A program made the position numbers and the translations under genes. Below are positions 13,077 to 55,195 of a DNA stretch of 64,000 nucleotides, one piece after another (positions within the stretch are counted from its first letter, which is position 1; the number at the start of each line of letters is the position of its first letter). Below the pieces are notes generated by a model. That model saw only the letters and a program-made list of their open reading frames with translations, had not been told where the DNA came from and ran no database searches. The stretch comes from an uncultured Thermoleophilia bacterium (GTDB lineage: Bacteria > Actinomycetota > Thermoleophilia > UBA2241): NCBI GenBank assembly GCA_963695395.1, contig CAVOGK010000031.1, positions 31,637-95,636 on the forward strand, in the 5' to 3' direction.

Positions 13077-13096
13077 CTGTCAAGTCGATGTGGAGG

Positions 13097-21440: not shown

Positions 21441-21490
21441 GCGTCCCCCTCGATTCGCCGGTGGTGAGGATGGACTCTAGCAGACAAGCA

Positions 21491-21514
21491 TCAGACCTGT
21501 CTAGACAGGTCTGA
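21491..21514. promoter_or_regulatory. GntR/HutC-type operator
   Basis: Perfect 24-bp palindrome TCAGACCTGTCTAGACAGGTCTGA between divergent genes. Confidence 0.8.
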
Positions 21515-21571
21515 AATCGTGCTACAATCCAGCCTCGACACGTCGACGTCGAGCCCCCAGCTGGAGAGCGT

Positions 21572-22976: not shown

Positions 22977-23018
22977 CGCTGGCAGCAGATCGCCCGCCCC
23001 GCGCGATAATGTCGGGCC

Positions 23019-24071: not shown

Positions 24072-24130
24072 CCCTCCCGCTGGCGCTCGATCACCCGCTG
24101 TGGCTGTCGCTTCCGGCCGCCCCGCCGCAC

Positions 24131-24167
24131 GTTTCCCGCAGATTCAGCAACTTCCTGGCAACTTGCC
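24131..24167 (+). repeat. Orphan att arm after the integrase pseudogene
   Basis: GTTTCCCGCAGATTCAGCAACTTCCTGGCAACTTGCC, compare 40024-40060. Confidence 0.7.
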
Positions 24168-26987: not shown

Positions 26988-27115
26988 TCTCCCGCAGATT
27001 CAGCAACCTACTAGCAACGTGGCATTCTGCCGGGCCCAGGAACACAAAGACTGCAAGGCGGACAATGCCCTCGTAGCTCAGTGGATAGAGCAGGCCTCCT
27101 GGTACCGCAGCCTGG
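26988..27115 (+). repeat. att junction 7: arm, tRNA 5' fragment (27067-27092) and CCGCAGCCTGG
   Basis: First 26 nt identical to the tRNA at 54584, then diverged. Confidence 0.85.
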
Positions 27116-27329
27116 TGTCTATGGGGCACTGAGGCCACTGACGTCGGCTACATGCCGCTGGCGCCCGAGCTGGTCGTACTGAAGCGGTGACACGATCTCT
27201 GATCACACCATCCCGATATCGCGACTCGACGTGACCGTCGTTGACCCTGCAGGAGACCCTGGTGAAAGCGGGCGTCGATCCTGGCCCAGCGACGCGGCAG
27301 AGCTGGCAGTTCTGCTGCTGCGCCACCTG

Positions 27330-27945
27330 GACTTCGTAGCCGCTTCTCGGGCTTGGCGGGTAGCAGGTTCTGGGCCTGCTGGTTGATCTTCGACCTCACG
27401 CGCGGATCTCCAACGTGCAGCGGACGATCGAGGAGGACGAGGACGGCACGCTCCGAGATCCGCTGAAAGAACGGCAAGGCCCGCGCCTGGCCCTTGCCCG
27501 CTGCTGCTGGCGACGAGCTGCGCGTTCCGCCACGGCGCAGAAGGAGATCCGCCTGGGCTAGGGAGGGCCCGGCCTGGGAACGAGGCCGGCCGCGCTGGTC
27601 CCGAAGAAGGATCTGCAACTGATATGGGCCCCTCGACCTTGAGGAGCCAGTGGCGGCAACCGGGCGGCGCCAGAAGACTCGACCTGGATCTGCCGATCCA
27701 TGGCCTGAGCCATCTTCGGCATCTGGTCTACGAGGCCTACGGTCAACAGGCGCAGGTGGCCCGGCGATCCGACCCGGCGACCATGCTGCGCCACGACGTG
27801 CGCCTGACCACCGCCGCGCCGGCCGAAGGCAGTGGCCGGCCTCGACCAGGCTCACGCGGCGGCGCTCGGGGCCGCTGAAGACAAGGTCCTGGAAGGACGC
27901 CCAGCCGCTTGAGGACAACGTCGTCGCGCTCTCCAGCCGACGCCA
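27330..27945 (+). pseudogene. Degenerate integrase C-terminal half
   Basis: TIEEDEDGT, KNGKAR, STLRSQW, LPIHGL, DPATMLRH, DNVVALSSRR across frames. Confidence 0.85.
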
Positions 27946-32079: not shown

Positions 32080-32234
32080 CCCGTGCGCCGCACAACGGCC
32101 GCGCGCGGGCGAAGGCGGTCGCCGGGCTCGACGAGGTGACGCGGGCGGCGCTCGAGAGGGCCGAGGAGAAGCTCCTCGAGGACTCGCGGACTGTGCGAGA
32201 CAACGTGGTGTCGCTGGCTGGCCGCAGGCGGTAG
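32080..32234 (+). pseudogene. Integrase C-terminal remnant
   Basis: RAKAVAGLDEVTRAALERAEEKLLED..DNVVSLAGRRR*. Confidence 0.9.
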
Positions 32235-34150: not shown

Positions 34151-34203
34151 TCTTCGCGTCGATTCGGCCACCCCGCCGCCGTTCTCTCGCCGTCTTCCTG
34201 CGC

Positions 34204-34405
34204 GTTTCCCGCAGATTTGGCAGCTTGTTGGCAACTCGTGGTATTCCTGTCCGGACGCTGCGGGACAAAGTACCTGCAAATCGGCACAATGCGCTCGTAG
34301 CTTAGTGGATGGAGCACAGGCTTCCTGAATCCGCAGCCTGGGGTGCCAATCGGGGTACTCTGAGGGTGATTCGGGGTCGTTTGGCGACAGTCCACCGGCG
34401 CCCCG
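34204..34405 (+). repeat. att junction 6 (tRNA 5' half at 34291-34329)
   Basis: 5 mismatches in 39 nt to the tRNA 5' half; followed by TCCGCAGCCTGGGGTGCCAATCGGGGTA. Confidence 0.92.
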
Positions 34406-34462
34406 TTCCGCAGGCCTTCGCCCTCACGGCCTCTCGTCGCAGCCGACCACCATGGGCGACGC

Positions 34463-39673: not shown

Positions 39674-39812
39674 CTAGGCACGACCTCCCCTTCGACACGT
39701 GGGCATCGTGGCACAGGAGTCGTCGGCTGTCTACGATGGTGGGGCTGCGGGGATGGGTGAGAATGGCGTCGATGTCTGGTTCCTGCTGGCCGGGCCAACG
39801 AGTCGACCGAAC

Positions 39813-40060
39813 GTTTCCTGCAGATTCTTCGCAACTCTGGCATTCTGGTCCAGCTGCCGCAGAGGAAAAACCCCTGTAAATCGGCACAATGTTCTCGTAG
39901 CTCAGTGGATAGAGCACAGGTTTCCTAAATCCGCAGCCTGGGGTGCCAATCGGGGTACTTCGAGGGTGAATCGGGGTCGTTTGACGACCCTCCGCCGGCG
40001 CCCCGAGCCTGTTCGAGTCTGCAGTTCCCTGCAGATCGAGCAACTTCCCAGCAACTTGCC
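39813..40060 (+). repeat. att junction 5, complete attP-like (tRNA 5' half at 39891-39929)
   Basis: 2 mismatches in 39 nt; GCAGA/GCAACT repeats on both sides. Confidence 0.95.
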
Positions 40061-40124
40061 GGAATCGGCCCGCGGCGCCCTCCGCCGCCGGCCCTGGAGT
40101 CGTCAGCCCGCCGATTCCCTCTTC

Positions 40125-40183
40125 GCCCAACGACATTGGCGATCAGCGGCCGGCGAAGCGCCCGCTGCACCGCCGGGTTGGGC
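40125..40183 (-). other. Integron attC-like site (59 bp)
   Basis: GCCCAAC..GGCGGTGCAGCGG..CCGCTGATCGCC..GTTGGGC: canonical R boxes and a bulged L stem, downstream of the hydrolase stop. Confidence 0.75.
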
Positions 40184-40239
40184 GGCGCCTCACGTTCAGC
40201 CCTCGGCCTTCCGAATCCTGGGAGTTCACGTGGATCAGC

Positions 40240-40914
40240 CTACAGCGCCAGCACCGCCGCGAGCTCGCGCGGGTGGAGCGGGAAGACCGCATGGTCGGAC
40301 GCGAGCTCGACGGGCTCCACGCCCAGGCGCGCCGCCATCTCACGCTGTGTCGCCGGCGGGAGGATGTTGTCCTCCGTGCAAAGGATGTAGGTGCAGGGCA
40401 CGTCGGGGAGCGACCGGCCAGGCCAGGGCTGCTCCATCGCTGCCCAGCCCTGGGGTCGCTGCGTGGCCTCGAGGAAGGCGAGGTACGCCTCCCGCTCGTC
40501 CGGTGGCACGATCGACGCGAGCAGCTCCAGGTCGAACGACCGGCAGCCGTTGCCGTCCTCATGAGAGACCGACAGGATCGTCTCACGGACCTCGGCGCCG
40601 GCGAGGTCTACTATCGAGCGCCCCGGCTCGGGAACGAAGGCCGTCGCGTATACCAGGCGGTCGACGCGGGTCCGGCCGGGCACGAGCGAGATCGTCGCGC
40701 CTCCCGCCGAGTGGCCGACGACGACCACCGGCCCCTTGATCCCGGCCATCGCCTCGACCACCGTGCGGGCGTAGTCGTCGAGCGTGGCCGCTGGGTCCGT
40801 GCACGGCAGATCGACGGCGATCGCGCGGTGACCGAGCGCCTCGAGCTCGGGAATCACCGGCGCCAGCTCGGCGGCACTGCCGAACGCGCCGTGGACCAGA
40901 ACGAACGTCGTCAT
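40240..40914 (-). CDS. Alpha/beta hydrolase (esterase)
   Basis: FVLVHGA, GHSAGG, D..L, SDH. Confidence 0.9.
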   Translation of the reverse strand: MTTFVLVHGAFGSAAELAPVIPELEALGHRAIAVDLPCTDPAATLDDYARTVVEAMAGIKGPVVVVGHSAGGATISLVPGRTRVDRLVYATAFVPEPGRSIVDLAGAEVRETILSVSHEDGNGCRSFDLELLASIVPPDEREAYLAFLEATQRPQGWAAMEQPWPGRSLPDVPCTYILCTEDNILPPATQREMAARLGVEPVELASDHAVFPLHPRELAAVLAL

Positions 40915-41046
40915 TTCGAATGCCTCCTCAAGTAGCGTCTGGTGAGCACATCGGGCAGCGCCATGTGCTGCAGATTCCCTCGCTCGCTGGAGAACAAGCC
41001 AGGACCAGCGCATTCAGCGGCCCTCGTATGATCATCTCGAAGATGT

Positions 41047-41217
41047 CCCGAGCCCGCGTTCGACAAAGACGGGCAGCCGGTCCTCGACGCCAAGGGCCGG
41101 CAGAAGCAGCGCTACCCGAAGACCACCAAGGTGGTCGCGGCCAAGGGCAAGAAGGCCGCCGAGGATGCGCAGCCCGCCCACGACAACGTCGTCGCGCTCG
41201 CCAGCCGCCGCCGTTAG
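41047..41217 (+). pseudogene. Internally deleted integrase (N-terminal piece joined in frame to the tail)
   Basis: PEPAFDKDGQPVLDAKGRQKQRYPKTTKVVAAKGKKAAE-DAQPAHDNVVALASRRR*. Confidence 0.9.
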
Positions 41218-41257
41218 CCGCCCTCAGCTGCCTGCTCGGACTCTGCTCTCGCCGCAC

Positions 41258-41385
41258 GTTCTGCAGACTGGGCGATTCCAGTATCTCTCGGGGCTGCGGC
41301 AGAGGAAGGACACCTGCAGATGGCCGCAACCGTCTCGCAGTTCAGTGGACACAGCACGAGTCTTCCGCATGCGCAGCCTGGGGTG
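41258..41385 (+). repeat. att junction 4, strongly degenerate (41331-41369)
   Basis: About 25/39 ungapped identity to the tRNA 5' half, with GCAGAGGAA..CCTGCA upstream and GCAGCCTGGGGTG downstream. Confidence 0.7.
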
Positions 41386-41527
41386 AGCTCGGGTCCATCT
41401 GAGGGCATGACGGGTCGATCTCGCTGGAGGAGGTCGCCGGCCGGGATGTGCCGACGCACCGCTTGACAACAGGGCGATCCCCCCGTAGCGTGTGAGCGCT
41501 CACTCACATCATCCGAGGAAGGCTGGA

Positions 41528-42487
41528 ATGACCGTGATCCGCACCGAGAAGCTCACGCGCCGCTTCGGCGACATCGTGGCGGTCCGGGAGCTCGACCTCG
41601 AGGTCGATGGCGCAGGCGTGGTCGGTCTCGTCGGCCCCAACGGCTCCGGCAAGTCCACGCTCATCCGCCTCCTGCTCGGCCTCATCAGGCCCACGAGCGG
41701 GACCGCCACGGTCTTCGGATCGCCCATCTCGCGTCCGCTCGCCTACGCGGCGCGCGTCGGCGCGCTGATCGAGAGCCCGGCGTTCGTGCCGACGCTCTCC
41801 GCGCGCACCAACCTGCGCTCGCTGGCGCGGCTGCGCGGGATCCCCAACGGTCGTGTGGAGGAGGTGCTCGACGTCGTCGGCCTGCTGGACCGCAGCAGGG
41901 AGCCTGCGAAGCGCTTCTCCCTCGGCATGAAGCAGCGGCTGGGGATCGCCGCCGCGCTCCTGCCCGATCCCGAGCTCCTTGTGCTCGACGAGCCCACCAA
42001 CGGTCTCGACCCGGCCGGGATCGTCGAGATCCGGGCGCTTCTGCGGCGGCTGGCTGACGAGGGTCGCACGGTCGTCGTCTCCTCGCACCTGCTCAGTGAG
42101 ATCGAGGCGGCCTGCGACGCACTGGCAGTCGTCCGCAATGGCGAACTGCTGTTCTCGGGCCCACTGAGCGACCTGGTCTCGCAGGCGGGGGAGTGCATCG
42201 AGACTGCGCCGGAGCACCCCGGCGACGTCGGCCGACTCGCCGAGCTGCTCACCTCGAACGGCTGGCAGGCCACGGTCCACGAGGAGAATGTTCGCGTGAC
42301 TGCCCCGGCCTCGCAGTCCGCCGCGGTCAACCGCGCCGCGGCTGGGGCCGGCATCACGTTGCGCGCCCTGCGGCCGCGCGCGGCAAGCCTCGAAGATGTC
42401 TTCCTGCGCATGACAGGGGAGGGCTCGGACGACGGCGCCGAGCCGGCAGAAGTGCAGACCGCCAAGCGCGCGGAGGCGCGGTCGTGA
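41528..42487 (+). CDS. ABC transporter ATP-binding protein
   Basis: GPNGSGKST, FSLGMKQRL, LDEPTNGLD, SSH. Confidence 0.95.
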   Translation: MTVIRTEKLTRRFGDIVAVRELDLEVDGAGVVGLVGPNGSGKSTLIRLLLGLIRPTSGTATVFGSPISRPLAYAARVGALIESPAFVPTLSARTNLRSLARLRGIPNGRVEEVLDVVGLLDRSREPAKRFSLGMKQRLGIAAALLPDPELLVLDEPTNGLDPAGIVEIRALLRRLADEGRTVVVSSHLLSEIEAACDALAVVRNGELLFSGPLSDLVSQAGECIETAPEHPGDVGRLAELLTSNGWQATVHEENVRVTAPASQSAAVNRAAAGAGITLRALRPRAASLEDVFLRMTGEGSDDGAEPAEVQTAKRAEARS

Positions 42488-43272
42488 TCCGCGTCATCCG
42501 CAGCGAGCTGACGCGCCTCGGCAGCCCGCCGCTGCTCCTTGGGGGCATCGGCCTCATGACGTTCTTCGGCCTTCTGGCGACGGTCATCGTCTTCGTCACG
42601 GCCGGCAGCGGCTCGGCGACGCTTCCCGGCACCGAGGGCATCACGGTGTCGATGCTCGAGGCCCCCGACGGCATGTTCGCCGGCATGCAGACCTTCGCCG
42701 GCATGCTCGGCATCGTGGCGCTCGTCGTGTGGGCGATGTCCGCGACCACCGACGTCTCGAGCGGGCTGATCCGCCTGCTGGTCCAGGCGGAGCCGCGGCG
42801 CCTGCGCCTGCTCGGGGGCAAGATCGTCGCCCTCGTCGCGTTCACGTGCGCGGGCACGCTGGTCGCGACGGTCATGGTCATGCCCGTGGTCCAAGGCCTC
42901 GCGGAGTCATCGGGGGTCTCCACCGCAGCGTGGCAGTCCGACATGGTCAGCACCATCGTCGTGGGCTACCTCCAGTTGACGCTGAGCGTCCTGCTCTGGG
43001 GCGTGGTCGGCCTGTGCGTCGGGATCCTCACGCGCAGCAGCGGCATCTCCATCGCCATCGGCATCGGCTACCTGATGGTCTTCGAGGGGGTGCTCAGCAT
43101 GCTCCTGGGCAGCGGACAGAAGTGGCTGCCCGGCACCGCGTTCACGGCGATCGCCAAGGGCGGGAGCGCAGACATGACGTTCGCGACGGCGCTACTGCTC
43201 GGCGCCGCCTACGCTCTCGTCGCCATCGCCGTGGCCGCGGTCGTCTTCCGGCAGCGCGACATCACGGCGTGA
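42484..43272 (+). CDS. ABC-2 type permease
   Basis: IRSELTRL start, six TM segments, FRQRDIT end. Confidence 0.88.
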   Translation: MIRVIRSELTRLGSPPLLLGGIGLMTFFGLLATVIVFVTAGSGSATLPGTEGITVSMLEAPDGMFAGMQTFAGMLGIVALVVWAMSATTDVSSGLIRLLVQAEPRRLRLLGGKIVALVAFTCAGTLVATVMVMPVVQGLAESSGVSTAAWQSDMVSTIVVGYLQLTLSVLLWGVVGLCVGILTRSSGISIAIGIGYLMVFEGVLSMLLGSGQKWLPGTAFTAIAKGGSADMTFATALLLGAAYALVAIAVAAVVFRQRDITA

Positions 43273-43300
43273 TCCGGACGGCGGAGGACGAGGAGGTCCG

Positions 43301-43948
43301 ATGACTGCAGCAAGGTCGGGCAAGGGCGACACCCATCGAGTGCTGATGGACGCCGCTCTGGAGGTCTTCCTGCGGCGCGGCTTCGCGCGCGCGACGACGC
43401 GCGAGATCGCCGCCGCTGCCGGCGTCGCCGAGGGCACGATCTACCGGCACTTCGCCGACAAGCACGCGCTCTTCCGCGAGGTGTTCTTCTCCGTCATGGG
43501 CGGCATGGGGGAGGAGCTGCGGCGGCTCCCCGAGCGCGCCGGCAGCGCCACCGTGCGCGCCAACCTGGCGTACCTGCTCGGGCTGCTCGGCACGCTGCAG
43601 GAGCGCTCGGCGCCGCTGCTGGCATCGATGTCGGCCGATCCGGAGCTGGCAGGCAGCTTCGCCGCGCACGTCGCCGACAACGCGCTCGAGGGGTTTGAGC
43701 TTTCGGCGCCGGTATCGGCGGTCGCGGACTACATTCGCGCCGAGCAGCAGCTGGGAAGGATCAGGACGGACGTGGATGCCGAAGAGGCCGCCGCTGTCGT
43801 GGCCGCGTTGCCGTTCGCCCGGGGCGCCGAGCGCGCCCTTGACCCACGGACTCCGGCCCGAGATGGTTCCGCCGAGCCGCGAGGCTTCCCGGTCCCGGCT
43901 GCGGCGGCGCTCGACATCCTCGCGCAGGGCCTCGCTCCGTCTCCGTAA
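43301..43948 (+). CDS. TetR family regulator
   Basis: TTREIAAAAGVAEGTIYRHF.DK. Confidence 0.92.
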   Translation: MTAARSGKGDTHRVLMDAALEVFLRRGFARATTREIAAAAGVAEGTIYRHFADKHALFREVFFSVMGGMGEELRRLPERAGSATVRANLAYLLGLLGTLQERSAPLLASMSADPELAGSFAAHVADNALEGFELSAPVSAVADYIRAEQQLGRIRTDVDAEEAAAVVAALPFARGAERALDPRTPARDGSAEPRGFPVPAAAALDILAQGLAPSP

Positions 43949-43976
43949 GCTGCCCATCCGGCCGCGCCGCCATCAC

Positions 43977-44236
43977 GTTTCCTGCAGCTTTAGCAACTTT
44001 TTCGCAACTCTGGTATTCTGGTCCGGCTGTCGCAGAGGAAAAACCCCTGCAAATCGGCACTTTGCCCTCGTAGCTCAGTGGATAGAGCACAGGTTTCCTA
44101 AATCCGCAGCCTAGGGTGCCAATCGGGGTACTTCGAGGGTGAATCGGGGTCGTTTGGCGACAGTCCGCTGACGCCCGGAGCCGGTTCGAGCCTGCAGTTT
44201 CCTGCAGAATTAGCAACTTTTTAGCAACTTGCGGGA
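43977..44236 (+). repeat. att junction 3, complete attP-like (tRNA 5' half at 44064-44102)
   Basis: 39/39 identity; GTTTCCTGCAG..GCAACT..GCAACT at both ends. Confidence 0.95.
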
Positions 44237-44294
44237 CGCGGATGCACGCCGTTGATCGGCGAGGGCGATCACCCTCCTGATGCTAGCAGGGCCT

Positions 44295-45056
44295 CTACAG
44301 GCTCTGGAGCGCCTCGGCCGCGTGCTTGCCTGCATCGGAGGCCGGGTCGATGCTCACAGCCTTCTGGAACGCGACTTTCGCCTCCGCAAGGTAGTCAGCC
44401 GACTTCGCCTTGTCCTTCGCCTCGCGGGCCTCGGTCTGCAGGAAGATGCCCTTGTTGAGATGCGCGGCCTGGAACTCGGGGTTCTGTTTGATGACGACCT
44501 CGATCTGCTTGAGGCCCTCTTCGTGATGCCTCATGTAGAAGAGCGAGACCGCGAGGTCGGTGCCCACACTCGGATCGCCAGGCTGCTTCTTCCAGGCGGC
44601 CCGGTACACCTGGGAGGCGGCCTTGAAGTACGCCTCTCCGCCAGCTGAGTCATCCTTGTTGAAGGCGTCGATGCCCTGGTCGTAGAGGCCGTTGGCCCGG
44701 TCGACGAGCTCGGAGTAGCTGCCGGACGTATCGGCCGCGACCGGCGCCGCCGCCGGCGCCGGGTCGCCGCTCGAGCCTCCGCCGGCGGCGAAGACGATCG
44801 CCACGACGACGACTGCGATCGCGGCGAAGCCCAACCAGACCCACAGAGGCGAACGTGAGCGGCCGAATGGGGCCGACTCCGCATTTCGCTCAGCGGCCGG
44901 CCTCGCGGACTGCGGCCGCTGCGCCGTGGCCGGCGATCCCCCGGCAGGCTTCCTCGCCGGGCGACGAAGCGCCGCGCGGGCCTTCGTCAGGTCGTTCCCG
45001 CACTCGGGACAGAACTTCGCGTCATCGGCCTCGCGGCCGCACTCAGGACAGTACAT
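44295..45056 (-). CDS. Zinc-ribbon, TM and TPR protein
   Basis: CPECG..KFCPECG, TM helix, TPR-like C-terminus. Confidence 0.8.
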   Translation of the reverse strand: MYCPECGREADDAKFCPECGNDLTKARAALRRPARKPAGGSPATAQRPQSARPAAERNAESAPFGRSRSPLWVWLGFAAIAVVVVAIVFAAGGGSSGDPAPAAAPVAADTSGSYSELVDRANGLYDQGIDAFNKDDSAGGEAYFKAASQVYRAAWKKQPGDPSVGTDLAVSLFYMRHHEEGLKQIEVVIKQNPEFQAAHLNKGIFLQTEAREAKDKAKSADYLAEAKVAFQKAVSIDPASDAGKHAAEALQSL

Positions 45057-45316
45057 CGATGATCGGTCTCCTTGGGCTGGGATCTGGTCATCGGTGGCGC
45101 GGCGATCTGTCTCACTCACCGCCACTCGAGTAGAGAAAGTCGACAGATGCTGTTGACTTTGTCCATGATACTGAGCGGGCCAAGGCCGTCAAACCAGAGC
45201 GCGCCAACGATATCGACGGCGTCGGTCGTTGCCGCGGCGCCCTCTTCGGCGCGAACGACCGAGGGCCGGCGGACAGCCGGCCCTCGGGGTCGTCACGTTC
45301 TTGCAGGCGGAAGGGC

Positions 45317-46108
45317 TTACCAGCCGAAGCCGCCCCACATGCCGCCGAGTCCCATCCAGCCGCCGGCGCCGTCGCGCATGCGCGCTTTGGTCACGGACAG
45401 GTGGTGCTTCGCGTAGAAGGTCTTGACCTGGGCACGGTGATGCGCGCGCATGGTCTTCAGAGCCCTCTGCGCCGCGTCGCTCTTGAGGCGCTTGTGGTAG
45501 CGCTCGGCCCAGCGGTCGACGTGCGCCGTCTGGTGGCTGCGCATGTCGAGCCAGCGGCCGAAGGCGCGGGGATGGTTCGCCATCCAGGCGGCGCCGTGGC
45601 CGCTGCCCCACATGTGGGAGGCGTCCCACTCGTGGTCGCCCATCATGCCGCCCTTGTCCCAGCCGCCCCACATGCCGTCGGAGGGGCAGGTCCAGGCAGC
45701 GCCGTTCCCATGCTGCTCGTAGAAGGCCTTCCTGTCGTTCCAATGCGCGGTCCACAGAGCGTGCAGGGCCTGCTGCGCCGCGGGGCCCTTGAGGTCGGCC
45801 TTGTAGGTCTCATGCCAGGTCTGCATCGCCTGCTGCTGGTCGACGCGCAGCTGCGTCCAGGTGGCCAGGGCGTCGGGGTTGTTCTTCAGCCACGAAGCAC
45901 CGCTGCCGGTGCCCCACATGCCGGTGCCGCCCCAGCGGCCGTCGCCGTTCCAGAGGCCGCCGCCGCACCAGTCGCCGCTGTGATCGCCCTCGTGGTCGCC
46001 GTCGCCCATCATGCCGCTGGGGCTGGCGCCGGCGATCGGCACGAGGAGCAGCGCCGCGAGCGCGACGACCGCGAGGGCGGTGAGAAGCGCCTTGAAGCTC
46101 AGTTTCAT
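45317..46108 (-). CDS. Secreted Gly/Trp/Met/His-rich protein (paralog of 1319-2134)
   Basis: Identical C-terminus RMRDGAGGWMGLGGMWGGFGW. Confidence 0.75.
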   Translation of the reverse strand: MKLSFKALLTALAVVALAALLLVPIAGASPSGMMGDGDHEGDHSGDWCGGGLWNGDGRWGGTGMWGTGSGASWLKNNPDALATWTQLRVDQQQAMQTWHETYKADLKGPAAQQALHALWTAHWNDRKAFYEQHGNGAAWTCPSDGMWGGWDKGGMMGDHEWDASHMWGSGHGAAWMANHPRAFGRWLDMRSHQTAHVDRWAERYHKRLKSDAAQRALKTMRAHHRAQVKTFYAKHHLSVTKARMRDGAGGWMGLGGMWGGFGW

Positions 46109-46237
46109 CAGGTGACCATCCTTTGACTCATCGAGGGGTGATGTCGGGGCGCTGAAGATGAGAGCGCTCCGGATGCTGGAGGACTTGTGAGCCGCGCCGT
46201 CCGGACCTCCTTCGCGGTCGCTTGCTGCTTCCGCTAT

Positions 46238-46267
46238 CTGGAACACGCGAGGCCCGCCTTTCTTACA
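46238..46267 (-). promoter_or_regulatory. Putative ECF promoter, copy 3
   Basis: TGTAAGAAA-N12-GTGTTCCAG. Confidence 0.65.
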
Positions 46268-46288
46268 GTCGCGCGGCGAAACGGGCGA

Positions 46289-47510
46289 TCAATCGCCGGA
46301 GCCGTCGTGGCCGCCGGACGTGTCGCCACCGTCGTGGGTGGTCGTCGTGCTGGTCGAATGAGTGCGTGGTGGAGTCCGTGGTGCTGGTGCCGCTGTCGTG
46401 CGTCGTCGTCGCAGCGTCGCCGGCGGCGTCGTGCGTCGTGGTCGAGCCGCCGCCGGCATCACCCGCGTCGTGGGTGGACGTCGTCGTGGAGTCATGCGTC
46501 GCAGCGTCATGACCGCCGCCGGAGTCGTGACCAGCCGAGCCCGCGTGGCGGGCGGCCCCGCCGTGCTCGCCCCGCGGCGTGCCATGGCCCGCCTGATGCC
46601 GGTCGTGCATCGCGGTGTAGGGTGACGCAGGTCGGGCGCTGGCGCCGATGGGAGCCACGGTCGCCGCGGCCGCTGCGGCCGCCGCAGGCCCTCGGTCGCT
46701 CCTGCCCCCCTCCTTGACCGCGACCGCGCCGCCGCCGATGACGACGGCCGCGGCGGCGGCCGTGATCGCCGCCTTGGTCGTGACGGCGGCGCCGATCTTG
46801 GCCAGCAGCCCGGCGCCGGCGGGGCCGGCGGCCGAGGCGATGTCGGGTGAAGGCAGCGCGTGCACGGGCGCGAGGCCCGCAGGCAGCGGCGGCATCGCCA
46901 GCAGCGCGGCCGGCACGCTGAGGGGCATGAGCACGAGGCCGAGCGCGGCCGGGGCGGCGGCGTCCGCGCCGGCGAGCTTGGCGAACACCGTCTTGAACGA
47001 GGCGCGGGCGCGGTGCACGAGCACGTCGGCGTTCGGCCGCGAGACCTCCATGACCTCGGCGATCTCCTCGGGCGGCAGGCCCTGGAGGTCCTTGAGCACG
47101 AGGGCGGTGCGGTAGCGCTCGTTCATCTCGCCGAGCGACTGCTCGACCAGCGCCACGGTCCGGGCGCGCTCGAACTCGTCGACGCCGGAGGCGGCCTGCT
47201 CGAGGCCGGCGTCGCCGCCGCCGTCGAGCTTGCGCCGCGAGCGCAGGTGGTTGAAGCAGGCGTTGGTGGCGACGCGGTAGAGCCAGGCGCGCAGGCCGAA
47301 CGACTCCTCGTCCGCCTGCGGCAGCTGGTCGAACGCCTTGATGAACACTTCCTGGGTCACGTCCTTGGCCTCCTCGCGGTCGCCGAGCACCCGAGCGCAG
47401 AGGTTGTAGATGGGTGCGTGGTACTCGCCGTAGAGGCGCTCGAAGGCGTCGCGGCGCCCGGCCCGGAGGCCGCGCACGAGATCGGGGGCTGTGGCGGGAG
47501 GTGAAGGCAT
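46289..47510 (-). CDS. ECF sigma factor with TM and His/Thr-rich extension (frameshift near 46355)
   Basis: Sigma core nearly identical to 2323-3485; repeated TTHD units. Confidence 0.85.
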
Positions 47511-47623
47511 CAGGGAAGGAGTTCCGAGCTCAACGGTACTCTCATCCTGCCGGCCTTCAACCGTTCCCGCCGCACGAGGGCCGGCCGCTGCCGGCCGACC
47601 CTCGCGACTTGCGTCGTGATCGT

Positions 47624-48090
47624 TCAGTCACCGCCGTGGCCGCCGCCGTGGCCGCTGTCGTGACCGCCGCTCGAGACGTGCGTCTGCTGGCTGGTCTCGT
47701 GCGTCTGCTGGCTGGTCTCGTTCTCGTGGACGCCCGGGTTGCTGGCGGAGCCGCTGTGATCGCTCTGCTTGCTCTGAGCGCTCTTCCGGACGCGCTCGGC
47801 GTGCCGGGCCTCGGCCTTATGGGCGCGCTGCTGCGCCTGGGCGTGCTTGCGCTCGACGCGGCGCGCGTGGGTCTTCGCGCTTCTGCGCCTCGCGGACGTG
47901 GCTGCCCGACTGGTGGTCGATGAGCTGGGCCAGCTGCTTGTCCGTGAGCGTGACCGCGTGCTTGGCGGGCGTCTTGTCGACTGCGCTGTGCGTCCTGCGC
48001 CTTGGTGAGCTGCTGCACGCCCGCCATGGCGACGCTCGTCATGGCGAACACGATCACCGCCGTGGCGACGATGGTCTTGAGTGCCTTCAT
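47624..48090 (-). CDS. Secreted His/Gln-rich protein, frameshifted (paralog of 3600-4085)
   Basis: MKALKTIVAT start and GHGGGHGGD end in different frames. Confidence 0.65.
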
Positions 48091-48124
48091 GGTCTCTCCC
48101 TTGGGTTCGTTGTCCTTGCACCTG

Positions 48125-48154
48125 CTAGAACACGGGGAGGCGGCGTTTCTTACA
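48125..48154 (-). promoter_or_regulatory. Putative ECF promoter, copy 4
   Basis: TGTAAGAAA-N12-GTGTTCTAG. Confidence 0.65.
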
Positions 48155-49063
48155 CCGGGCTTTTCGCGACCTTGGTTCGGCCGAGGGGTGCAAGGGTCAG
48201 CCGCGGGTCCGCCTGAAACGAAACGGCCAAGCTGCCAGTCGGTATCCCCGCTGGCCTTCGCTGGCGACCACCTGCCATGCATAGCGACGCCGGAGCTTCT
48301 CGACGGCTAGGTGCACGTCGATGCTTGCGGCGCGCGCGAGCCGTGAACATGGCCGCCTCCTTCCCGCTCATCGATCCCAAGAGAAATAGCTACCCCGGCC
48401 CTGTTGGGAATCGGTGAAGACGCGCCCATCTCTCAGGCGGCGGCGCCTTCCAGGCGTCCGCCCGCGGCTTCGCGCTCTCCGAGCAGGAACAGCTCCGCGC
48501 TGCCGCAGCACGGACAGGCGACGATGCCCGAGTGGGAACGATGGACCCCAATCGGGACCAGGAACTCCTCCGTGCACACCGTGCATGCCAGGTCGACTTG
48601 CTTGCTCATCTCTTCTCCTCATCATCTGTGACGATGAGCTTCTACCGGATGCGTGCGAGAACACGGCGAGACCAGTGTGAGGGTGCCATGAGCGTGCCGG
48701 CGGGAAGTGTCGACGCCGCGGACGAGATTCACGGGCTGCTGACGTCCGGCTGACCCTCTCCTAACAGAGCGGCGCCAGACTGTCGCCATGATGACGCGGC
48801 GCATGATGATCCGGCGTCACCTCCGCAGCGCCCGGGCCTCCGCGCTGACGGAGGAGGAACGCCGGCTCGAGCTTCGCGAGGCCGAAGCGAGGATCGCACA
48901 CGGCCCCGGCAAGTCGGCCGAGTCCGAGGCTTCCCCCTCCTCGGATGACGCGGGCGCCTCCGGGGCCTCCGAAGCGTGGCCCGAGGGGACCGGCGTCAGT
49001 GACCCCCGCTGATGCCGGCCCGCCTCGGTCGCGGCCGGGGGCGGGGCCGACTGCGGGCGTCCG

Positions 49064-49609
49064 TCAGTCCTGGGCCGACGGCTCGCCCTCGTCCTGCGAG
49101 TCGAGTCCGTTATGCGGCGCGTGGTTCTGGGCCAGGGCGACGAGCTCGCGGGCCTGCAGCAGCCAGACGAGCTCGGCGCTCCGTGACTTCCTCGCCGACA
49201 GGTGCACCCGCGCGAGACCGCCCTTGCTGAGGACGACGTGGGCCCCGGTGAGCTTGTGGATGACCGTCGTGAACTCGGGGTTGTGACCGACGAGCATGAC
49301 GGCGTCGGCTTGAGAGTGCTCGCGAAGGAGGCGGCGAAGATCCTTCATGCCGAAGCCCCTGCCGAGGCTGTTCGCAGTGCTGAGCTTGCCCTCGAGGCCG
49401 AGCGCCGGCGCCACGATCTCGGCGGTGCGCTGGGCGCGTTCCAGGGGGCTCGTGATGAGGACGTCGGGCGAGACCTTCAGGCGAGCGAGGGTCCAAGCTG
49501 AATGCGCCAGTGAGGAGATGCCGGCCTGGGTAAGGGGCCTGCTCGCATCCTCGCCGTCCCACTCAGATCGCGGGACGCTCTGGCCGTGTCTCAGGAAGTA
49601 GAGTTCCAT
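49064..49609 (-). CDS. sixA: SixA-like phosphohistidine phosphatase
   Basis: LYFLRHG, RPLT, TSPL.RA..TA, LVGHNP. Confidence 0.85.
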   Translation of the reverse strand: MELYFLRHGQSVPRSEWDGEDASRPLTQAGISSLAHSAWTLARLKVSPDVLITSPLERAQRTAEIVAPALGLEGKLSTANSLGRGFGMKDLRRLLREHSQADAVMLVGHNPEFTTVIHKLTGAHVVLSKGGLARVHLSARKSRSAELVWLLQARELVALAQNHAPHNGLDSQDEGEPSAQD

Positions 49610-49813
49610 TCAGTCAGCCCTCTCAGTCCTTTTCGCGAAAGGGCGTCGTCCTTCCCATCTGCGACGCCAAGGAATGCTATCGCATCACTGCGGCTCGGGT
49701 GAACGTCGGGCCCGGTGCGTGCTCGCGGCGGACTGCTGCCGGATACGCCGGACAGGTCGACAATGCGCCCGCACGCTGGCTGAATGGGCGAAGAGCGTGA
49801 CGGACGGCTGCCG

Positions 49814-49950
49814 GTTTCCTGCAGAATTTCGCAACTCTTTCGCAACTCTGGTATTCTGGTCCGGCTGTGGCAGAGGTAAAACCCCTGCAAATCGGCACAA
49901 TGCCCTCGTAGCTCAGTGGATAGAGCACAGGTTTCCTAAATCCGCAGCCT
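49814..49950 (+). repeat. att junction 2 (tRNA 5' half at 49902-49940)
   Basis: 39/39 identity, followed by TCCGCAGCCT; rest of the right arm missing. Confidence 0.95.
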
Positions 49951-50034
49951 GCTACGCCCCGAGCAAGACCCGCCGGGCTGCGATCCGAGCTTGCTGCGAT
50001 TGACGTCGGGCGCGCCAGTGACACTAACGATGCG

Positions 50035-50388
50035 CTACCGTGGCGACCGGATTCGCACAAGTCCGGCGGAGAGAACGGTGAACGCCCCGGGCATCTCGAC
50101 ACCGTGCTCGCCGATCACCTGCGCAACGGCATCCGCCTTGCCTGTCGAGGGTAGCCCCGGCAAGCGCACAAGAAGGATGCCGAACGCGACTCGACGCAAG
50201 CGGAACACGAGTTCGCCGAAATCCTTGTCGGCGGTCATGAGGATGCGCTCATCGGCGTTGGCGAGCTCAAGCACGGCCTCGTCGGTGATGCCCGGAGAGA
50301 GTTCGGCAACGTAGACGACGTCGTGGCCGACGGACCGCAGCCGGGTGACGATGGCTGAGTCGACGCCTTCGTCGGCGAGTAGCTTCAC
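50035..50388 (-). CDS. DUF5615 PIN-like toxin
   Basis: MKLLADEGV, GHDV, DEAVL, T.DKDFGEL. Confidence 0.88.
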   Translation of the reverse strand: MKLLADEGVDSAIVTRLRSVGHDVVYVAELSPGITDEAVLELANADERILMTADKDFGELVFRLRRVAFGILLVRLPGLPSTGKADAVAQVIGEHGVEMPGAFTVLSAGLVRIRSPR

Positions 50389-50621
50389 GCCACCGACTTG
50401 GAGACCGGATAGGCGACGTCAGCGCGGAGGACCTCGGCCCCGAAGCGCACGGCGGAGAGCACGCCCTCGCGCGTGAGCCGAGGATGGGCCTCCAGGAGTT
50501 GCTCGATCGTCCGGCCGGCGCCGAGCTCATCGAGGATGGACTCGACCGTGATGCGTGTGCCCTCGACGACGGGCTTGCCCATCATGACGTCGGGGTCAGA
50601 TTTGATTCCTTGCGTAGCCAT
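50385..50621 (-). CDS. DUF433 antitoxin
   Basis: DPDVMMGKPVVEGTRITVE; overlaps the toxin start. Confidence 0.9.
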   Translation of the reverse strand: MATQGIKSDPDVMMGKPVVEGTRITVESILDELGAGRTIEQLLEAHPRLTREGVLSAVRFGAEVLRADVAYPVSKSVA

Positions 50622-50893
50622 TGCGAGAACCTCCTTGCCTGGCTGCAACGATACCACCGGATGCCCGACTCGTACCGAAAGGGTCTATCCGCTGATCGAC
50701 CGCGATTCCCACGAGGTCGTCTCTGAGGGCGCGAGTGCCACGTCTTTCGATACGTTCATGTTCAGCCTTCAGGGCAGAACAGAGCTGGTGGGCGACTGAT
50801 CACGAAGGGCCGTGGGGGGAACGGTCACTTCGGAGGCCGCGGGTCGAGGCGTTCGCTGCAGATTCCCTCCGACCGGCGCGATAGTGTCACTCC

Positions 50894-52198
50894 ATGAACC
50901 CCGAGCGCCTCACCGGCTTCGTCTACCCCGTGAAGAAGAACGGCGTCCCCGTGCGCGGCCGCTGGCAGCTGTGGGTGAACCTGCCGTCCGAGCCTGCGTT
51001 CGACCGGGACGGGCAGCCGGTCCTTGACTCCAAGGGCCACCAGAAGCAGCGCTACCCGAAGACCACCAAGGTGGTCGAGGCCAAGGGCAAGAAGGCCGCC
51101 GAGCGCCTGCTAGAGACATGGATCGCGGAGCTCGAGGCGCACCGCACCATCGACCCCGACCGCCTGAAGCTCGCGGAGCTCCTCGACCGCTGGCTCGAGG
51201 CGACGCGGGGCGAGATGCGCGTCGCCAGCTACAACTCCTACAGGCGCATCCGCCGGATCCACGTCGACCCGGCCCTCGGCCAGGTGCTCGCCGGCAAGCT
51301 CACCCGCGCGCAGCTCTCGACCTACTACGCGGCGAAGATGCGCGGGAGCAAGAAGAGGAAGCCGCTGGCCGAGACCACCGTCGCCCACCACCACGCGATG
51401 CTCAAGACCGCCTACAACTGGGCGCTCGAGGAGGAGCTGCTGCTCGTGAACCCGGCGCTGCGCGTCAAGAACCCGCCGGCGCTGCGCCCCAAGACGCGCC
51501 CCGTGTGGAGCATGGAGGAGATCGCGAGCACGGTGATCAGGGCGAGCGGCCTGCAGGTCCACGCCGCCGGCGTGCTCGCCGGCTTCTCCGGCCTGCGCGT
51601 CGGGGAGATCGCCGGCCTGCTCTGGTCCGACCTCGACCTCGCGCGCGGCTTCGTCACCGTCTGCCGCACCATCGAAGAGGACGACGACGGCACGCTGCTC
51701 GAGTACCCGCCGAAGAACGGCAAGGCGCGGACCGTGCCGCTGCCCGCCGCCGCCTGCGACGAGCTGCGCGTCTGGCTCGCGGCGCAGAAGGAGTACCGCC
51801 TGGCCCAGGGCCCGGCGCTGGAACGAGGCCGGCCGCGTGGTGCCGAAGAAGGACGGCACGCCAGATGGCGCCCTCGACCTTGAAGAGCCAGTGGTGGAAC
51901 TGGGTGGCGCGGCAGAAGATCGACCCGCACCTGCCGATCCACGGCCTGCGCGACTCGTTCGGCACCTGGGTCTACGAGACCTACGGGGTCAAGCAGGCGC
52001 AGGAGTGGCTCGGCCACTCCGACCCGGCGACCACGCTGCGCCACTACGTGCGCCTGACCACCGCCGCGCGGGCGAAGGCCGTGGCGGGGCTCGACGAGGT
52101 GACGCGGGCGGCGCTGGAGCGGGCCCAAGAGACAGGTGCTCGAGGACGCGCAGTCCGTGCTCGACAACGTCGTCTCGCTCGAAAGCAGGCGTCAGTAG
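50894..52198 (+). CDS. int: Tyrosine recombinase/integrase (a few frameshifts in the 3' third)
   Basis: Catalytic R (SGLRVGE), K (PKNGK), HxxR (HGLR), H/Y (LGHSD..RHY); arm-binding-type N-terminus. Confidence 0.92.
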
Positions 52199-52271
52199 TC
52201 TCTCCAGCTGACTCCTCCACTGCCGCCTGATGCTGCATTCCTGCCGCTTCCGTGAGCATCAGGCAGGCGAT

Positions 52272-53054
52272 CTAACCCGCAATCAAGACTCGGACGCCTT
52301 GCCTCGCAAGGCCTTCGGCGAAAGCTTTCGGGAGCCGGGTTGTGATGAGGGCGTCGACTTCGGGCCAGCCAACCACCCGCGCGCGAGCGTTGAATCCAAG
52401 CTTGCCCGGTGAGGCGAGCACGATCGTCTGAGAGGAGCTCTCGCTCATCGCTCGAGCGGACGCTGCGTCCTCAAGCGAGAAGTCCCGGACGCCGCCATCG
52501 AGAGTGGCTCCATCCGCGGCGACGAAGGCCAGGTCGGCGTGAAGGGTGCGGATCGTGTCAACGGACAGGGGTCCAGTCGTGCCGAAGGACGTCGCACGCA
52601 GCTGACCCCCGATGACGATGACTTCGATGCCCGCACTGCCGGCCAATAGCTGAGCGATGTTCAGTGCTCCCGTCACGATGGTCAGATGCCGGTGAACGAG
52701 GCATTGCGCGAGCGCGAAGGAGGTGGTCCCGTCCGTGAGGAACACGGTCATGCCGTCCTTGATGAGGGTCGCCGCCCGCTGGGCGATGAGGCGCTTCTCC
52801 CGCCGATCGCGGCTCTGCCGTATCTCGAACTCCTCCTCCAGGGTCGAGTGGCGCTGGACCGCCCGCGCTCCCCCTCTCGTTCGGGCAAGCAGGCCGAGGC
52901 GCTCGAGCAGGGCAAGATCACGCCGCGCGGTCGCCTCGCTGGCTCCGGTGGCGTCCATGATGTCGGACACGGACGCCACCGCCTGACGCCTCAGCAGTTC
53001 CTCGATCCGGCGCCGACGCTCCTCCGCAACGACGCGCCCCTCCTTGCGTTCCAT
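52272..53054 (-). CDS. DeoR/GlpR family regulator
   Basis: ERRRRI, SEATARRDL, RTRGGA, DGTT. Confidence 0.92.
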   Translation of the reverse strand: MERKEGRVVAEERRRRIEELLRRQAVASVSDIMDATGASEATARRDLALLERLGLLARTRGGARAVQRHSTLEEEFEIRQSRDRREKRLIAQRAATLIKDGMTVFLTDGTTSFALAQCLVHRHLTIVTGALNIAQLLAGSAGIEVIVIGGQLRATSFGTTGPLSVDTIRTLHADLAFVAADGATLDGGVRDFSLEDAASARAMSESSSQTIVLASPGKLGFNARARVVGWPEVDALITTRLPKAFAEGLARQGVRVLIAG

Positions 53055-53192
53055 GATCGCTTCCCTTCTCAGGTGCTGACGGAAGACTCAGCAAAACACT
53101 CATGTTCAGTCAATCACGTCATTGACCTGACTGGAAACGACTCGAATACTTCAGTAGCGAAGGGAAGCGCTATCGACCGGAGGAGGAAACGG

Positions 53193-53663
53193 ATGTCGAC
53201 CGAGTCCAGCGTGCTGAAGGCCACCGGCAGTTGCCTGTGCGGAGGCGTCAAGTATGAGGTGAACGGTCCCCTTCGGGACATCCTCTACTGCCACTGCGAG
53301 AACTGCCGCCGCACGCACGGCAACTTCTCCGCGTACACATCGGCTCGGCGTGAGGACCTCGGCATCACCGAGAGCCGCACGCTCAAGTGGTACCACACCG
53401 ACAAGGACGTGACGCTTGGCGTGCAACGCGGCTTCTGTTCGGAGTGCGGCTCGAGCGTCTTCTGGGATCCTCAGGGCTACGAGTACGTCTACATCTCGGC
53501 GGGGAGCGTCGACCCGCCCACGGGCATCAAGGGCGCTGGCCACATCTGGCTCAGCGAGGCGAGCGACTACTACGAGATCACTGACGATCTGCCCAGGGCC
53601 GAGGGTTCGTCCAAGGGCCTCTTCCTGGGCACGCCGCACGATGATCCGTTGAAGTCGTCCTGA
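53193..53663 (+). CDS. GFA/CENP-V family protein
   Basis: GSCLCGGV, CHCENCRR, RGFCSECGS; GGAGG RBS. Confidence 0.92.
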   Translation: MSTESSVLKATGSCLCGGVKYEVNGPLRDILYCHCENCRRTHGNFSAYTSARREDLGITESRTLKWYHTDKDVTLGVQRGFCSECGSSVFWDPQGYEYVYISAGSVDPPTGIKGAGHIWLSEASDYYEITDDLPRAEGSSKGLFLGTPHDDPLKSS

Positions 53664-53708
53664 CGGAGGCGCGCGACGTAGCACTCCGGCGGCCGGCAGC
53701 CTGAATCC

Positions 53709-54593
53709 ATGCCTCTCGCCGACGGACAGAGGCTGCCGGCCGACATCGGACTGCCGAGCCAGGTCTACGCTGAGAAGCAACTACGCGAGGCGCTGATGCT
53801 GCTTGCGCGCTGGAGCAGTCTGGTTGAGGTCGACGCGGTCGGCCTCCACACGCTGCTCTCGCCCGATAACCGTCGCGCAGCGCGTGAGAGTGGCCTTGCG
53901 TTCACCGTCCATGGTCCCTACGGGCCCGCGTTTGACCCGGCCAGCCCCGAGGAGTCGGAGAGGCATCGCACGATTGAAGCCCATCGCCGTCATGCTGAGG
54001 CAGCTGCTGCGATCGGCGCTCAATGCTACGTCGTGCATCCTGACCGAGGATCACAGGGCATTCCATGTGTCGCGGGGCGGCGAGCGCTTGAGCGAAGCCT
54101 GCGTGACCTGGAGGAAGTCCAGGCGTCGAGTGGCGTGCAGGTCGCGGTCGAGAACATGGCGACGGGCGCTGCATGGAGGTTCACCGCACCTGGAGACCTC
54201 GACCTCGGCGAGATCGGGTTGGTGCTCGACACGGGTCATGCTGCCATCTGCGGCACTCTGGACCCGTTCCTGACGAATCCTCGAGCGAGGCTCGTGCACG
54301 TTCATCTGCATAGCAACGCCGGCCCAACCGAGGAGCGAGATCCTCATCGCTGCCTCGGTGACGGGATCGTCGACGCCCTCACCGTGCTTACCGTTGCCAG
54401 AAGAGCGGAGGCTACGGTAGTCCTTGAACATGGCGAGGTTGGGACGGCGCTGGCCAGCATCGCCTATCTGTGGAAGCACGGGCTTGCTGGCGAGGCGTTT
54501 CCTGCAGATTTCGCAACTTTTTCGCAACTCTGGTATTCTGGTCCGGCTGTCGCAGAGGAAAAACCCCTGCAAATCGGCACAATGCCCTCGTAG
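53709..54593 (+). CDS. Sugar-phosphate isomerase/AP-endonuclease-2 TIM-barrel protein
   Basis: TVHGP, VVHP, VENM, LDTGHA, HVHLHSN, DPH; ORF runs through the att arm. Confidence 0.75.
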   Translation: MPLADGQRLPADIGLPSQVYAEKQLREALMLLARWSSLVEVDAVGLHTLLSPDNRRAARESGLAFTVHGPYGPAFDPASPEESERHRTIEAHRRHAEAAAAIGAQCYVVHPDRGSQGIPCVAGRRALERSLRDLEEVQASSGVQVAVENMATGAAWRFTAPGDLDLGEIGLVLDTGHAAICGTLDPFLTNPRARLVHVHLHSNAGPTEERDPHRCLGDGIVDALTVLTVARRAEATVVLEHGEVGTALASIAYLWKHGLAGEAFPADFATFSQLWYSGPAVAEEKPLQIGTMPS

Positions 54594-54622
54594 CTCAGTG
54601 GATAGAGCACAGGTTTCCTAAA
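54497..54622 (+). repeat. att junction 1: arm plus 5' half of the intact tRNA
   Basis: Near-identical to 43977-44102 and 49814-49940. Confidence 0.95.
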
Positions 54623-54659
54623 CCTGGTGTCGCTGGTTCGATTCCAGCCGGGGGCACCA
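54584..54659 (+). tRNA. tRNA-Arg(CCT)
   Basis: Full cloverleaf: GCCCTCG/CGGGGGC acceptor, CAGGT-TTCCTAA-ACCTG anticodon arm, GCTGG-TTCGATT-CCAGC T arm, encoded CCA. Confidence 0.97.
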
Positions 54660-55195
54660 CTCTGACGCTGCACGGTGGGCTTTCGTGTTGGGGCGTTTGG
54701 CAGCATGCCTTCCGAATCGGCAAGACTGCCGATACTCTGCCGACGAGACGGAGGCGCTCGGCCGGCCAAAGGGAACCACCAACCGGCACGGAGTGGCTCG
54801 GAGCCGCGGCGGGAGGATGGCTGGATATACTCGTCGATGCTGGATGTGGCGCAGGGCATGCGAACAGAAGCGTCTGCCATTATTCGATGCCCGTGGTGGC
54901 AGTCGACGAGGGACCCCCAGTGGCGATGGCTTGCGGTGAGCTCGCGTGGTGATCACGGCGCTCGCCGAAGAACGACGGCAGCGTTTGGATGTGGGGCGAC
55001 AACGAATACGGCCAACGGACGAGCTCCCGGATCGGCCTTCGGTCATGGAGTAGTTGCGTGTCAGGAACCAGACCAAGGACGCACGTCAAGCACCCTCACC
55101 GCATCTCGAGACTGGAAAGGCCATGACGGACGCGGCTGCGATCAGCAACAGCACCATCCGCCGGGTCTCGCCGCCCGATTGACCGGCGCCACTCG

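Follow-up and report, generated by a model that had tools for sequence, protein, structure and literature searches.

The integrases of lambda and mycobacteriophage L5 are heterobivalent, and their complex attP sites carry arm-type motifs that flank the core. Among the 3919 islands in Islander, 3760 have a 3′ tDNA fragment and 159 a 5′ tDNA fragment (PMC4383910, Table 1); tandem arrays at one tDNA are included there, and only four arrays comprise three or more islands (PMC4383910). The class with a displaced 5′ tDNA fragment is cited to Zhao and Williams 2002 (PMC6563490, section 7). In Klebsiella, islands of the arg2A-VII type integrate upstream of a tRNA-Arg gene, unlike the other islands of the same study (10.1101/2020.11.02.365908). 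Integration with a 5′ fragment is therefore rare, and already in print.

Here we describe an array at the tRNA-Arg(CCT) gene of an uncultured Thermoleophilia bacterium (GCA_963695395.1, here G000; assembly 79% complete), within a window of 64,000 nt on contig CAVOGK010000031.1 (C31). Our reading, to which we assign a probability of roughly 0.8, is that islands bearing a promoter and a tRNA 5′ half have accreted in tandem before this gene. The array adds to the known class, not a new logic, and the known picture of tRNA-targeted integration is unchanged. What stands out is the putative promoter-carrying attP, the long array, probably a fossil, and the use of one tRNA from both sides in relatives. 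All genomes compared were metagenome bins, in which repeats may be misassembled.

As with the 5′-fragment islands in Islander, a tyrosine-integrase island upstream of the tRNA has displaced a 5′ fragment that keeps the gene's orientation, and element sequence restores the gene. In contrast to those islands as described there, the identity block runs 88 nt past the gene and includes the predicted promoter, and the array has at least seven junction relics, compared with the four Islander arrays of three or more. The Klebsiella arg2A-VII islands are assigned a D-loop sublocation in that study, whereas identity ends in the anticodon loop here, and the host phylum is different. In Williams's sublocation scheme, as outlined in a preprint, our locus resembles classical anticodon-loop integration, since attP/attB identity ends in the anticodon loop and the symmetric stem flanks it; however, it is the mirror image, with identity toward the 5′ end, whereas the classical element supplies the 3′ half. 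In our literature search, the scope of which left out Zhao and Williams 2002 and Williams 2002, an element-borne tRNA promoter was not found stated for bacteria.

Table 1. Features of the window, its left flank and related sites (positions refer to the window unless a contig or locus is named)
Feature	Position or distance	Strand	Remarks
tRNA-Arg(CCT), intact	54584-54659	+	ARAGORN; sole intact tRNA in the window
attR upstream block (P arm), element-borne	54496-54583	+	junction alignment, motif statistics
attR cluster 1	GTTTCCTGCAG 54497-54507; GCAACT 54513-54518, 54524-54529	+	
attR extended -10 TGGTATTCT	54531-54539	+	followed by a 44-nt stretch up to the tRNA
Internal junction 44k, P arm and tRNA nt 1-39	43976-44102	+	97% identical to the attR copy
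44k junction cluster 1, GTTTCCTGCAG	43977-43987	+	
44k junction tRNA 5′ half	44064-44102	+	ends ...TTCCTAAA
44k junction P′ arm	44103-44240	+	phased repeats, then cluster 2
Phased ∼11-nt repeats, about four, TCGGGGT type	roughly 44110-44160	+	in the 44k P′ arm
44k junction cluster 2	GTTTCCTGCAG 44197-44207; GCAACT 44213-44218, 44224-44229	+	no -10 after it
Internal junction 49.9k	49807-50019 (repeat from 49814)	+	P arm and 5′ half intact; shared P′ arm 11 nt only
Internal junction 39k, with P′ arm	39803-40102	+	cluster 2 at 40024-40057
Older internal junction 34k	34198-34408 (repeat from 34203)	+	81% identical; P′ arm present, cluster 2 absent
Degenerate junction	41252-41443	+	found with profile of related junctions; directly 3′ of the integrase fragment at 41047-41163
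Decayed junction	26988-27128	+	found with the same profile; tRNA nt 1-26 intact, anticodon region eroded
Cluster 1 alone	24125-24164	+	found with the same profile; 57 nt past a broken integrase gene; rest of att site lost
Weak cluster-2 relic	14673-14723	+	related-junction profile, E = 0.0023
Integrase pseudogene	50894-52192 (Pfam Phage_integrase match 50894-52227)	+	90% identical to intact relatives; at least three frames
Integrase pseudogene	23019-24068	+	Pfam Phage_integrase; several frame changes, residues 54-145 missing
Integrase remnant	27329-27943	+	42-70% identical, three frames
Integrase fragment	41047-41163		
Integrase C-terminus remnant	32103-32228	+	
Integrase C-terminus remnant, far left	7420-7545	+	
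Left flank, zinc-ribbon gene end then two hairpins	G000:C31:28494-28829		2.8 kb left of window start
Downstream-side features	L044:18636-19340 and L044:19518-19653 (G015); L049:5879-6991 (G007); L042:7529-7665 (G028)		
G019, nadE to tRNA	1.3 kb		block absent
G026, nadE to tRNA	2.5 kb		block absent
G023, nadE to tRNA	2.8 kb		block absent
G004, nadE to tRNA	9.3 kb		block present
G020, nadE to tRNA	10.4 kb		block present
G007, nadE to tRNA	15 kb		block present
G028, nadE to tRNA	18 kb		block present
G032, nadE to tRNA	26.8 kb		block present
G006, nadE to tRNA	38.7 kb		block present
G017, nadE to tRNA	57 kb		block present
G000, nadE to tRNA	64.8 kb		block present
G035, nadE to nearest copy	at least 10 kb		block present; contig has internal copies only

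Tandem 5′ halves and integrase remnants in the window

About 88 nt of upstream sequence together with nt 1-39 of tRNA-Arg(CCT) is repeated in the same orientation from 34203, 39803, 43976 and 49814, and again in the block of the intact gene (54496-54659). This 127-nt family has five copies, spaced 5600, 4173, 5838 and 4682 nt apart. A search with the first 30 nt of the tRNA, allowing three mismatches, gave five matches in the window compared with 0.00 expected from 100 shuffles. All five copies of nt 1-39 lie on the + strand, with the intact gene at the right end and the 5′ fragments upstream of it. The initial annotation had described the duplicated part as upstream sequence plus tRNA nt 1-39, not the 3′ half, and its coordinates were confirmed throughout. 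By the geometry of the array, nt 1-39 of the working gene are assigned to the last integrated element and nt 40-76 to the host.

In the well-preserved junctions of the window, identity to the real gene stops after ...TTCCTAAA, i.e. the anticodon loop plus 1 nt. The same end point was found in most of 29 distinct junctions from relatives, with a few decayed copies diverging earlier. The crossover is predicted to fall in the anticodon loop. Beyond the core, a P′ arm is common to the 34k, 39k and 44k junctions, and cluster 2 is present after only two of the four well-preserved internal junctions; in relatives it is kept in about 22 of the 29 (by eye, from the alignment). The ∼85 nt that separate core and cluster 2 are of at least three sequence types, and every type has its own set of about four phased 11-nt repeats. 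Across the 44k junction and the relatives' 29, these repeats differ in sequence by type but not in phasing, and may be recognised by an excision factor or by the integrase (Int); their layout resembles that of excision-factor or arm sites in lambda-type and L5-type attP. Internal junctions that join P arm, core and P′ arm should be attP equivalents, as expected of a tandem array built by one element family.

We considered and rejected a tRNA-like structure formed by the 5′ half and the P′ arm: the Rfam tRNA score (22.5 bits) is below the gathering score of 29, the cloverleaf-like lowest-energy shape has a z-score of -0.63, and CGAGGGT, the apparent partner of the acceptor strand, belongs to the phased repeats and shows no co-variation in other P′ types.

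The units between junctions are 4.2-5.8 kb long and hold several genes each, in both orientations, with unrelated cargo that includes ECF sigma factors, an ABC ATPase, a TetR regulator, hydrolases and a DUF433/DUF5615 pair. After each window junction, the cargo genes lie on the opposite strand and converge on the junction. The DUF5615/DUF433 pair (minus strand, 50035-50654) directly follows the 49.9k junction and is likely a toxin–antitoxin-type module. Also inside the accreted region is a corrinoid methyltransferase-like set at 19465-23103, comprising a URO-D family protein, two B12-binding proteins and a GntR regulator.

Homologous recombination probably reshapes the array, as direct repeats of 127-250 nt offer enough length for it, and segmental duplication or recombination of the tRNA upstream region might have produced the repeats in place of site-specific integration. 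However, the gene content between repeats is unrelated, the repeat boundary falls exactly at the anticodon loop in all copies and species examined, and a dedicated integrase always accompanies the repeats. We therefore regard this origin as extremely improbable, and favour site-specific integration.

Recombinase genes lie within the islands, as in tyrosine-integrase islands, and their copies are broken. G000 yielded no intact integrase in its 79%-complete assembly, only pseudogenes and fragments, all within the window (Table 1). Because every window copy is broken, the array is probably no longer mobile, i.e. a fossil. The remnant at 7420-7545 indicates that the accreted region extends past the visible junctions. 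Related contigs from public runs have single-base gaps relative to the window at 51813-51861 and 52127-52133, which are places of frame change in the integrase; the frameshifts are either real pseudogene lesions or assembly errors.

Intact relatives of this integrase are tyrosine recombinases of 433-437 aa with an invariant R-K-H-R-H-Y set (Pfam Phage_integrase E = 9e-23 for one of them). In a scan that took one genome from each species, 40 integrase loci were found, almost all in uncultured Thermoleophilia bins, and wherever an att copy was seen among them, Int lay upstream in the same orientation. Full-length Int matches lie 90-1900 nt before an intact tRNA at eight loci (L051, L052, L054, L055, L058, L063, L066 and L071). 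The family is narrow: close members share 74-93% identity, three proteins 42-59%, and generic integrases no more than 33%. In 25 open reading frames of four related elements, no excisionase, transfer or phage genes were recognised by Pfam.

Most units may never have had their own integrase, being attP-bounded cassettes moved in trans by one Int, in an integron-like or cis-mobilisable manner. The units starting at 34203 and 43976 have no Int-like sequence and the unit from 39803 has only a 39-residue fragment; cargo also differs among units and, in intact relatives, varies between int and the P arm. Against this, Int remnants scattered at 7420, 27329, 32103 and 41047 point to decay and deletion, and the junctions themselves are eroded or truncated. 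The units are also multi-gene, in both orientations and with regulators and sigma factors, unlike integron cassettes, which have one gene, mostly lack a promoter, end in an attC hairpin site and lie beside intI and attI; what repeats here is an attP-like junction of 250 nt with half a tRNA gene inside it. We consider trans-mobilised cassettes unlikely, and prefer islands that each brought an integrase.

Contigs of related organisms in public runs contained no joint attributable to excision. A joint from 39811 to 54496 (14.7 kb; one contig in each of two DNA runs) was examined as a deletion and is better explained as a relative's junction with a full-length cluster 1. Three public RNA runs, available as contigs, contained only 6-8% of the sampled words, and transcript starts and ends are unreadable; RNA-run depth over the tRNA bin was discarded as a transcript signal, as it came from short assembled contigs of other organisms.

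Occupied and unoccupied tRNA-Arg(CCT) sites in relatives

In G019 and G026, the genes upstream of the tRNA are the housekeeping genes for NAD synthase (nadE) and aspartokinase. The same genes are found on the window contig at C31:14382-21408 (nadE, C31:20665-21408), where the tRNA lies at C31:86220. Adjoining the two housekeeping genes are the end of a small zinc-ribbon gene and two hairpins, an arrangement shared by all 10 genomes of the alignment. Immediately past the second hairpin all 10 sequences diverge, which marks the boundary of the variable region; in G023 the zinc-ribbon gene ends ∼90 nt before the tRNA.

We compared 12 genomes of the same genus with nadE and the tRNA on one contig (Table 1). 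The upstream block was absent in all three genomes with a short gap (1.3-2.8 kb) and present in all nine with a long gap of 9-65 kb (nominal Fisher P = 0.0045; the 12 genomes are relatives, and the counts overstate independence). The upstream sequences of the three short-gap genomes are 44-50% identical to the block, i.e. chance level, and these genomes provide unoccupied target sites. Since short-gap genomes lack the block and long-gap genomes carry it, the block arrives with the inserted DNA, and the same synteny comparison places positions 1-54495 of the window wholly inside the accreted region. It had been proposed that the element supplies the tRNA 5′ half and probably its promoter, and that finding the 90-bp upstream sequence in element-free relatives would speak against this; the block is missing from the unoccupied sites and tracks the long insert, in agreement with the proposal.

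The block is 99, 99, 98, 98 and 95% identical to the window copy in G017, G022, G002, G009 and G028, where recA identity is 90-91%, and only 93% (G006) and 79% (G020) identical where recA identity is 94% and 91%. recA served as the distance marker because the 79%-complete assembly lacks RpoB. Block identity is uncoupled from species distance, a signature of horizontal transfer. In G028, the block and 5′ half match the window, but the gene has another T arm and identity is 68% over the 90 nt downstream; by this comparison its tRNA gene is a mosaic with a breakpoint at the anticodon loop.

These comparisons bear on whether the block is a native tRNA leader, vertically inherited and merely copied into elements. 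G032, G004 and G027 have a single block copy by the tRNA, 69-82% identical, and no P′ arm in the genome; G032 and G004 lack a close Int homologue, and the block must originally derive from some tRNA promoter. However, G004 is not element-free: an Int C-terminal relic precedes its block by 1.5 kb, and nadE is 9.3 kb away. In G032, 26.8 kb separate nadE from the tRNA. Where nadE lies within 3 kb of the tRNA, in three genomes, the upstream sequence is unrelated and the -10 is the genome's own, and block identity fails to track recA identity. A native leader is thus very unlikely, and the block is best regarded as element-borne.

G032 has a diverged block (69% identity), a best Int match of 27% and no P′ arm anywhere in the genome, so its 26.8-kb insert may be of other origin. 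The leftmost attL (native promoter, 5′ half and P′ arm) was not found in C31:1-31636 of G000, nor by the zinc-ribbon gene in six array-bearing genomes (G004, G006, G007, G020, G028 and G032), and a single integration event is therefore not traced end to end in the genomes searched. Two paralogous two-gene modules at 9933-13780 of the window share 84% DNA identity with modules directly upstream of the G004 tRNA; their opposite order in the two genomes indicates that the accreted region has been rearranged.

The extended -10 and the repeat clusters

A generic sigma-70 scan found no promoter in 54300-54900 or 43800-44400, and it was replaced by statistics on the organism's own tRNA-upstream motifs; by hand count, the hexamers at the block match the generic sigma-70 consensus at 8 of 12 positions. 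In the 90-nt stretches before the 47 tRNA calls, the motif TGNTANNNT has 15 hits, i.e. 3.5 per kb compared with 0.065 per kb genome-wide. The hexamers of these hits start at -15 to -64, leaders range from near zero to ∼55 nt, and tRNA-Val and tRNA-His are both preceded by TGGTATCCT. TGGTATTCT fits this tRNA promoter signature. Elsewhere in G000, ARAGORN calls include candidates for tRNA-Pyl(CTA) at C2:25433-25505 and tRNA-SeC at C10:30565-30662.

The unoccupied sites in G019, G023 and G026 have their own extended -10 (TGCTACGAT, TGCTAGACT and TGGTAAAAT), of the form TGnTAnnnT and ending 8 nt before tRNA +1, whereas the block -10 ends 44 nt before the tRNA. The initial annotation had put TGGTATTCT ∼45 nt before the tRNA start, which agrees with its position in the 44k junction (44011-44019, its end 44 nt from the 5′ half). 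Beside an intact tRNA the block -10 is intact in 21 of 21 copies, compared with 18 of 29 distinct internal junctions (nominal P = 0.0012). The mutated internal copies include those of the 39k junction, where it reads TGGCATTCT and part of cluster 1 is deleted, and the 34k junction (TATTCC); the two youngest junctions (44k and 49.9k) retain it. This conservation fits selection on the gene-driving copy, and an element-borne TGGTATTCT promoter is predicted to drive tRNA-Arg(CCT). At L071:7150-7420 the integrase frame ends 2 nt before the tRNA, the leader-homologous sequence is coding and no TGnTAnnnT motif is present.

With up to one mismatch, GTTTCCTGCAG has nine matches in the window compared with 0.84 expected; one of the nine, on the minus strand at 27247, looks like chance. 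Genome-wide, all five exact GTTTCCTGCAG matches and six of seven GCAACT-N4-6-GCAACT matches lie inside the array. Cluster 1 is located ∼94-126 nt before the core end and cluster 2 ∼95-127 nt after it, in the same orientation, giving repeated motifs on both arms that are distinct from the core, as in a complex attP. The earlier observations of a GCAACT pair one helical turn apart (43993-43998 and 44004-44009, spacing 11 nt) and of the same cluster beyond the core (44197-44229 and 40024-40057) were reproduced.

The resemblance to lambda and L5 extends to an apparent attP of ∼250 bp, in which repeated motifs flank the core and phased repeats lie between the core and one arm, and to a putative extra N-terminal domain of Int ahead of the core-binding and catalytic domains. 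In contrast to those systems, an excisionase gene was unrecognised among the 25 open reading frames, and the P arm would double as the promoter of the target gene. Int residues 1-92 have no Pfam match, and in a PDB profile search lambda Int and Tn1549 Int align only from about position 66-84. A language-model feature search with the N-terminal 92 aa, which yields no alignment, pointed to the arm-binding families PF14657, PF02920 and PF09003 (score 0.94-0.95).

If the elements are as described, the GTTTCCTGCAG/GCAACT clusters might still be promoter-proximal elements (-35 or UP-like), or operators for a regulator of host or element. Read by hand, a TTCGCA hexamer located 18 nt before TATTCT shares sequence with the first GCAACT; block copies retain the cluster even where the genome has no close Int (G027, and partly G004), and Int lacks an arm-binding Pfam domain. 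However, cluster 2 is more strongly conserved than the sequence around it, although no -10 follows. No such cluster occurs in the 70 nt upstream of other tRNA genes or in the native promoters at unoccupied sites, and its genomic matches are almost all in the array. With the diverged Int of L071 (59% identical), the corresponding place is taken by another tandem repeat, two copies of TGTCACA spaced 11 nt apart, and the Int N-terminal domain resembles arm-binding domains in the feature search. A promoter or operator role is possible but doubtful. Based on site specificity, two-arm placement and conservation, we moderately favour the clusters as Int arm sites.

Proposed integration route and its consequences

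In our model, a roughly 57-kb stretch of small islands would have accreted between the flank (nadE, zinc-ribbon gene and terminators) and tRNA-Arg(CCT). Each island would have consisted of cargo genes and a tyrosine integrase, without recognisable transfer or phage genes. The integrase gene would lie just upstream of an attP of ∼250 bp and be co-oriented with the tRNA. This attP is envisaged as cluster 1, the extended -10, a leader (∼38 nt, from an assumed start ∼7 nt past the hexamer), tRNA nt 1-39, the crossover, four phased ∼11-nt repeats and cluster 2. With the integrase upstream in this layout, integration would displace the host promoter and 5′ half leftward, and the working gene would be rebuilt by joining element promoter, leader and 5′ half to the host 3′ half. 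Repeated integration at the rebuilt gene would leave attP-like internal junctions.

A more far-reaching version of this model is quite unlikely as a whole. In it, the P arm would be the only tRNA-Arg(CCT) promoter, and Int bound to GCAACT, overlapping the -35/spacer, would tie AGG decoding to recombination state. Internal junctions would fire into P′ arms to give 5′-half-led RNAs antisense to convergent cargo, and Int-less units would be cassettes moved in trans, making the locus a tRNA-anchored cassette platform.

Relatives also have 3′-half repeats downstream of the same tRNA, some with ∼90 nt of downstream sequence. They further carry tyrosine integrases of a second family, which share 26-33% identity with the upstream family and use the same tRNA in the classical direction (Table 1). 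No downstream 3′ repeat is listed for G000. Mirror-image targeting from both sides means that two mobile pieces can together make up a working gene, as a mosaic.

The compact Int and its 250-bp attP are a possible integration tool for Actinomycetota. The locus is a gene-gain hot spot of 9-65 kb, which matters when gene content is interpreted in metagenome bins of these soil bacteria. Compared side by side, occupied and unoccupied sites indicate that the element replaces the promoter and leader together with part of the tRNA, and expression of the host tRNA would thereby depend on element DNA.
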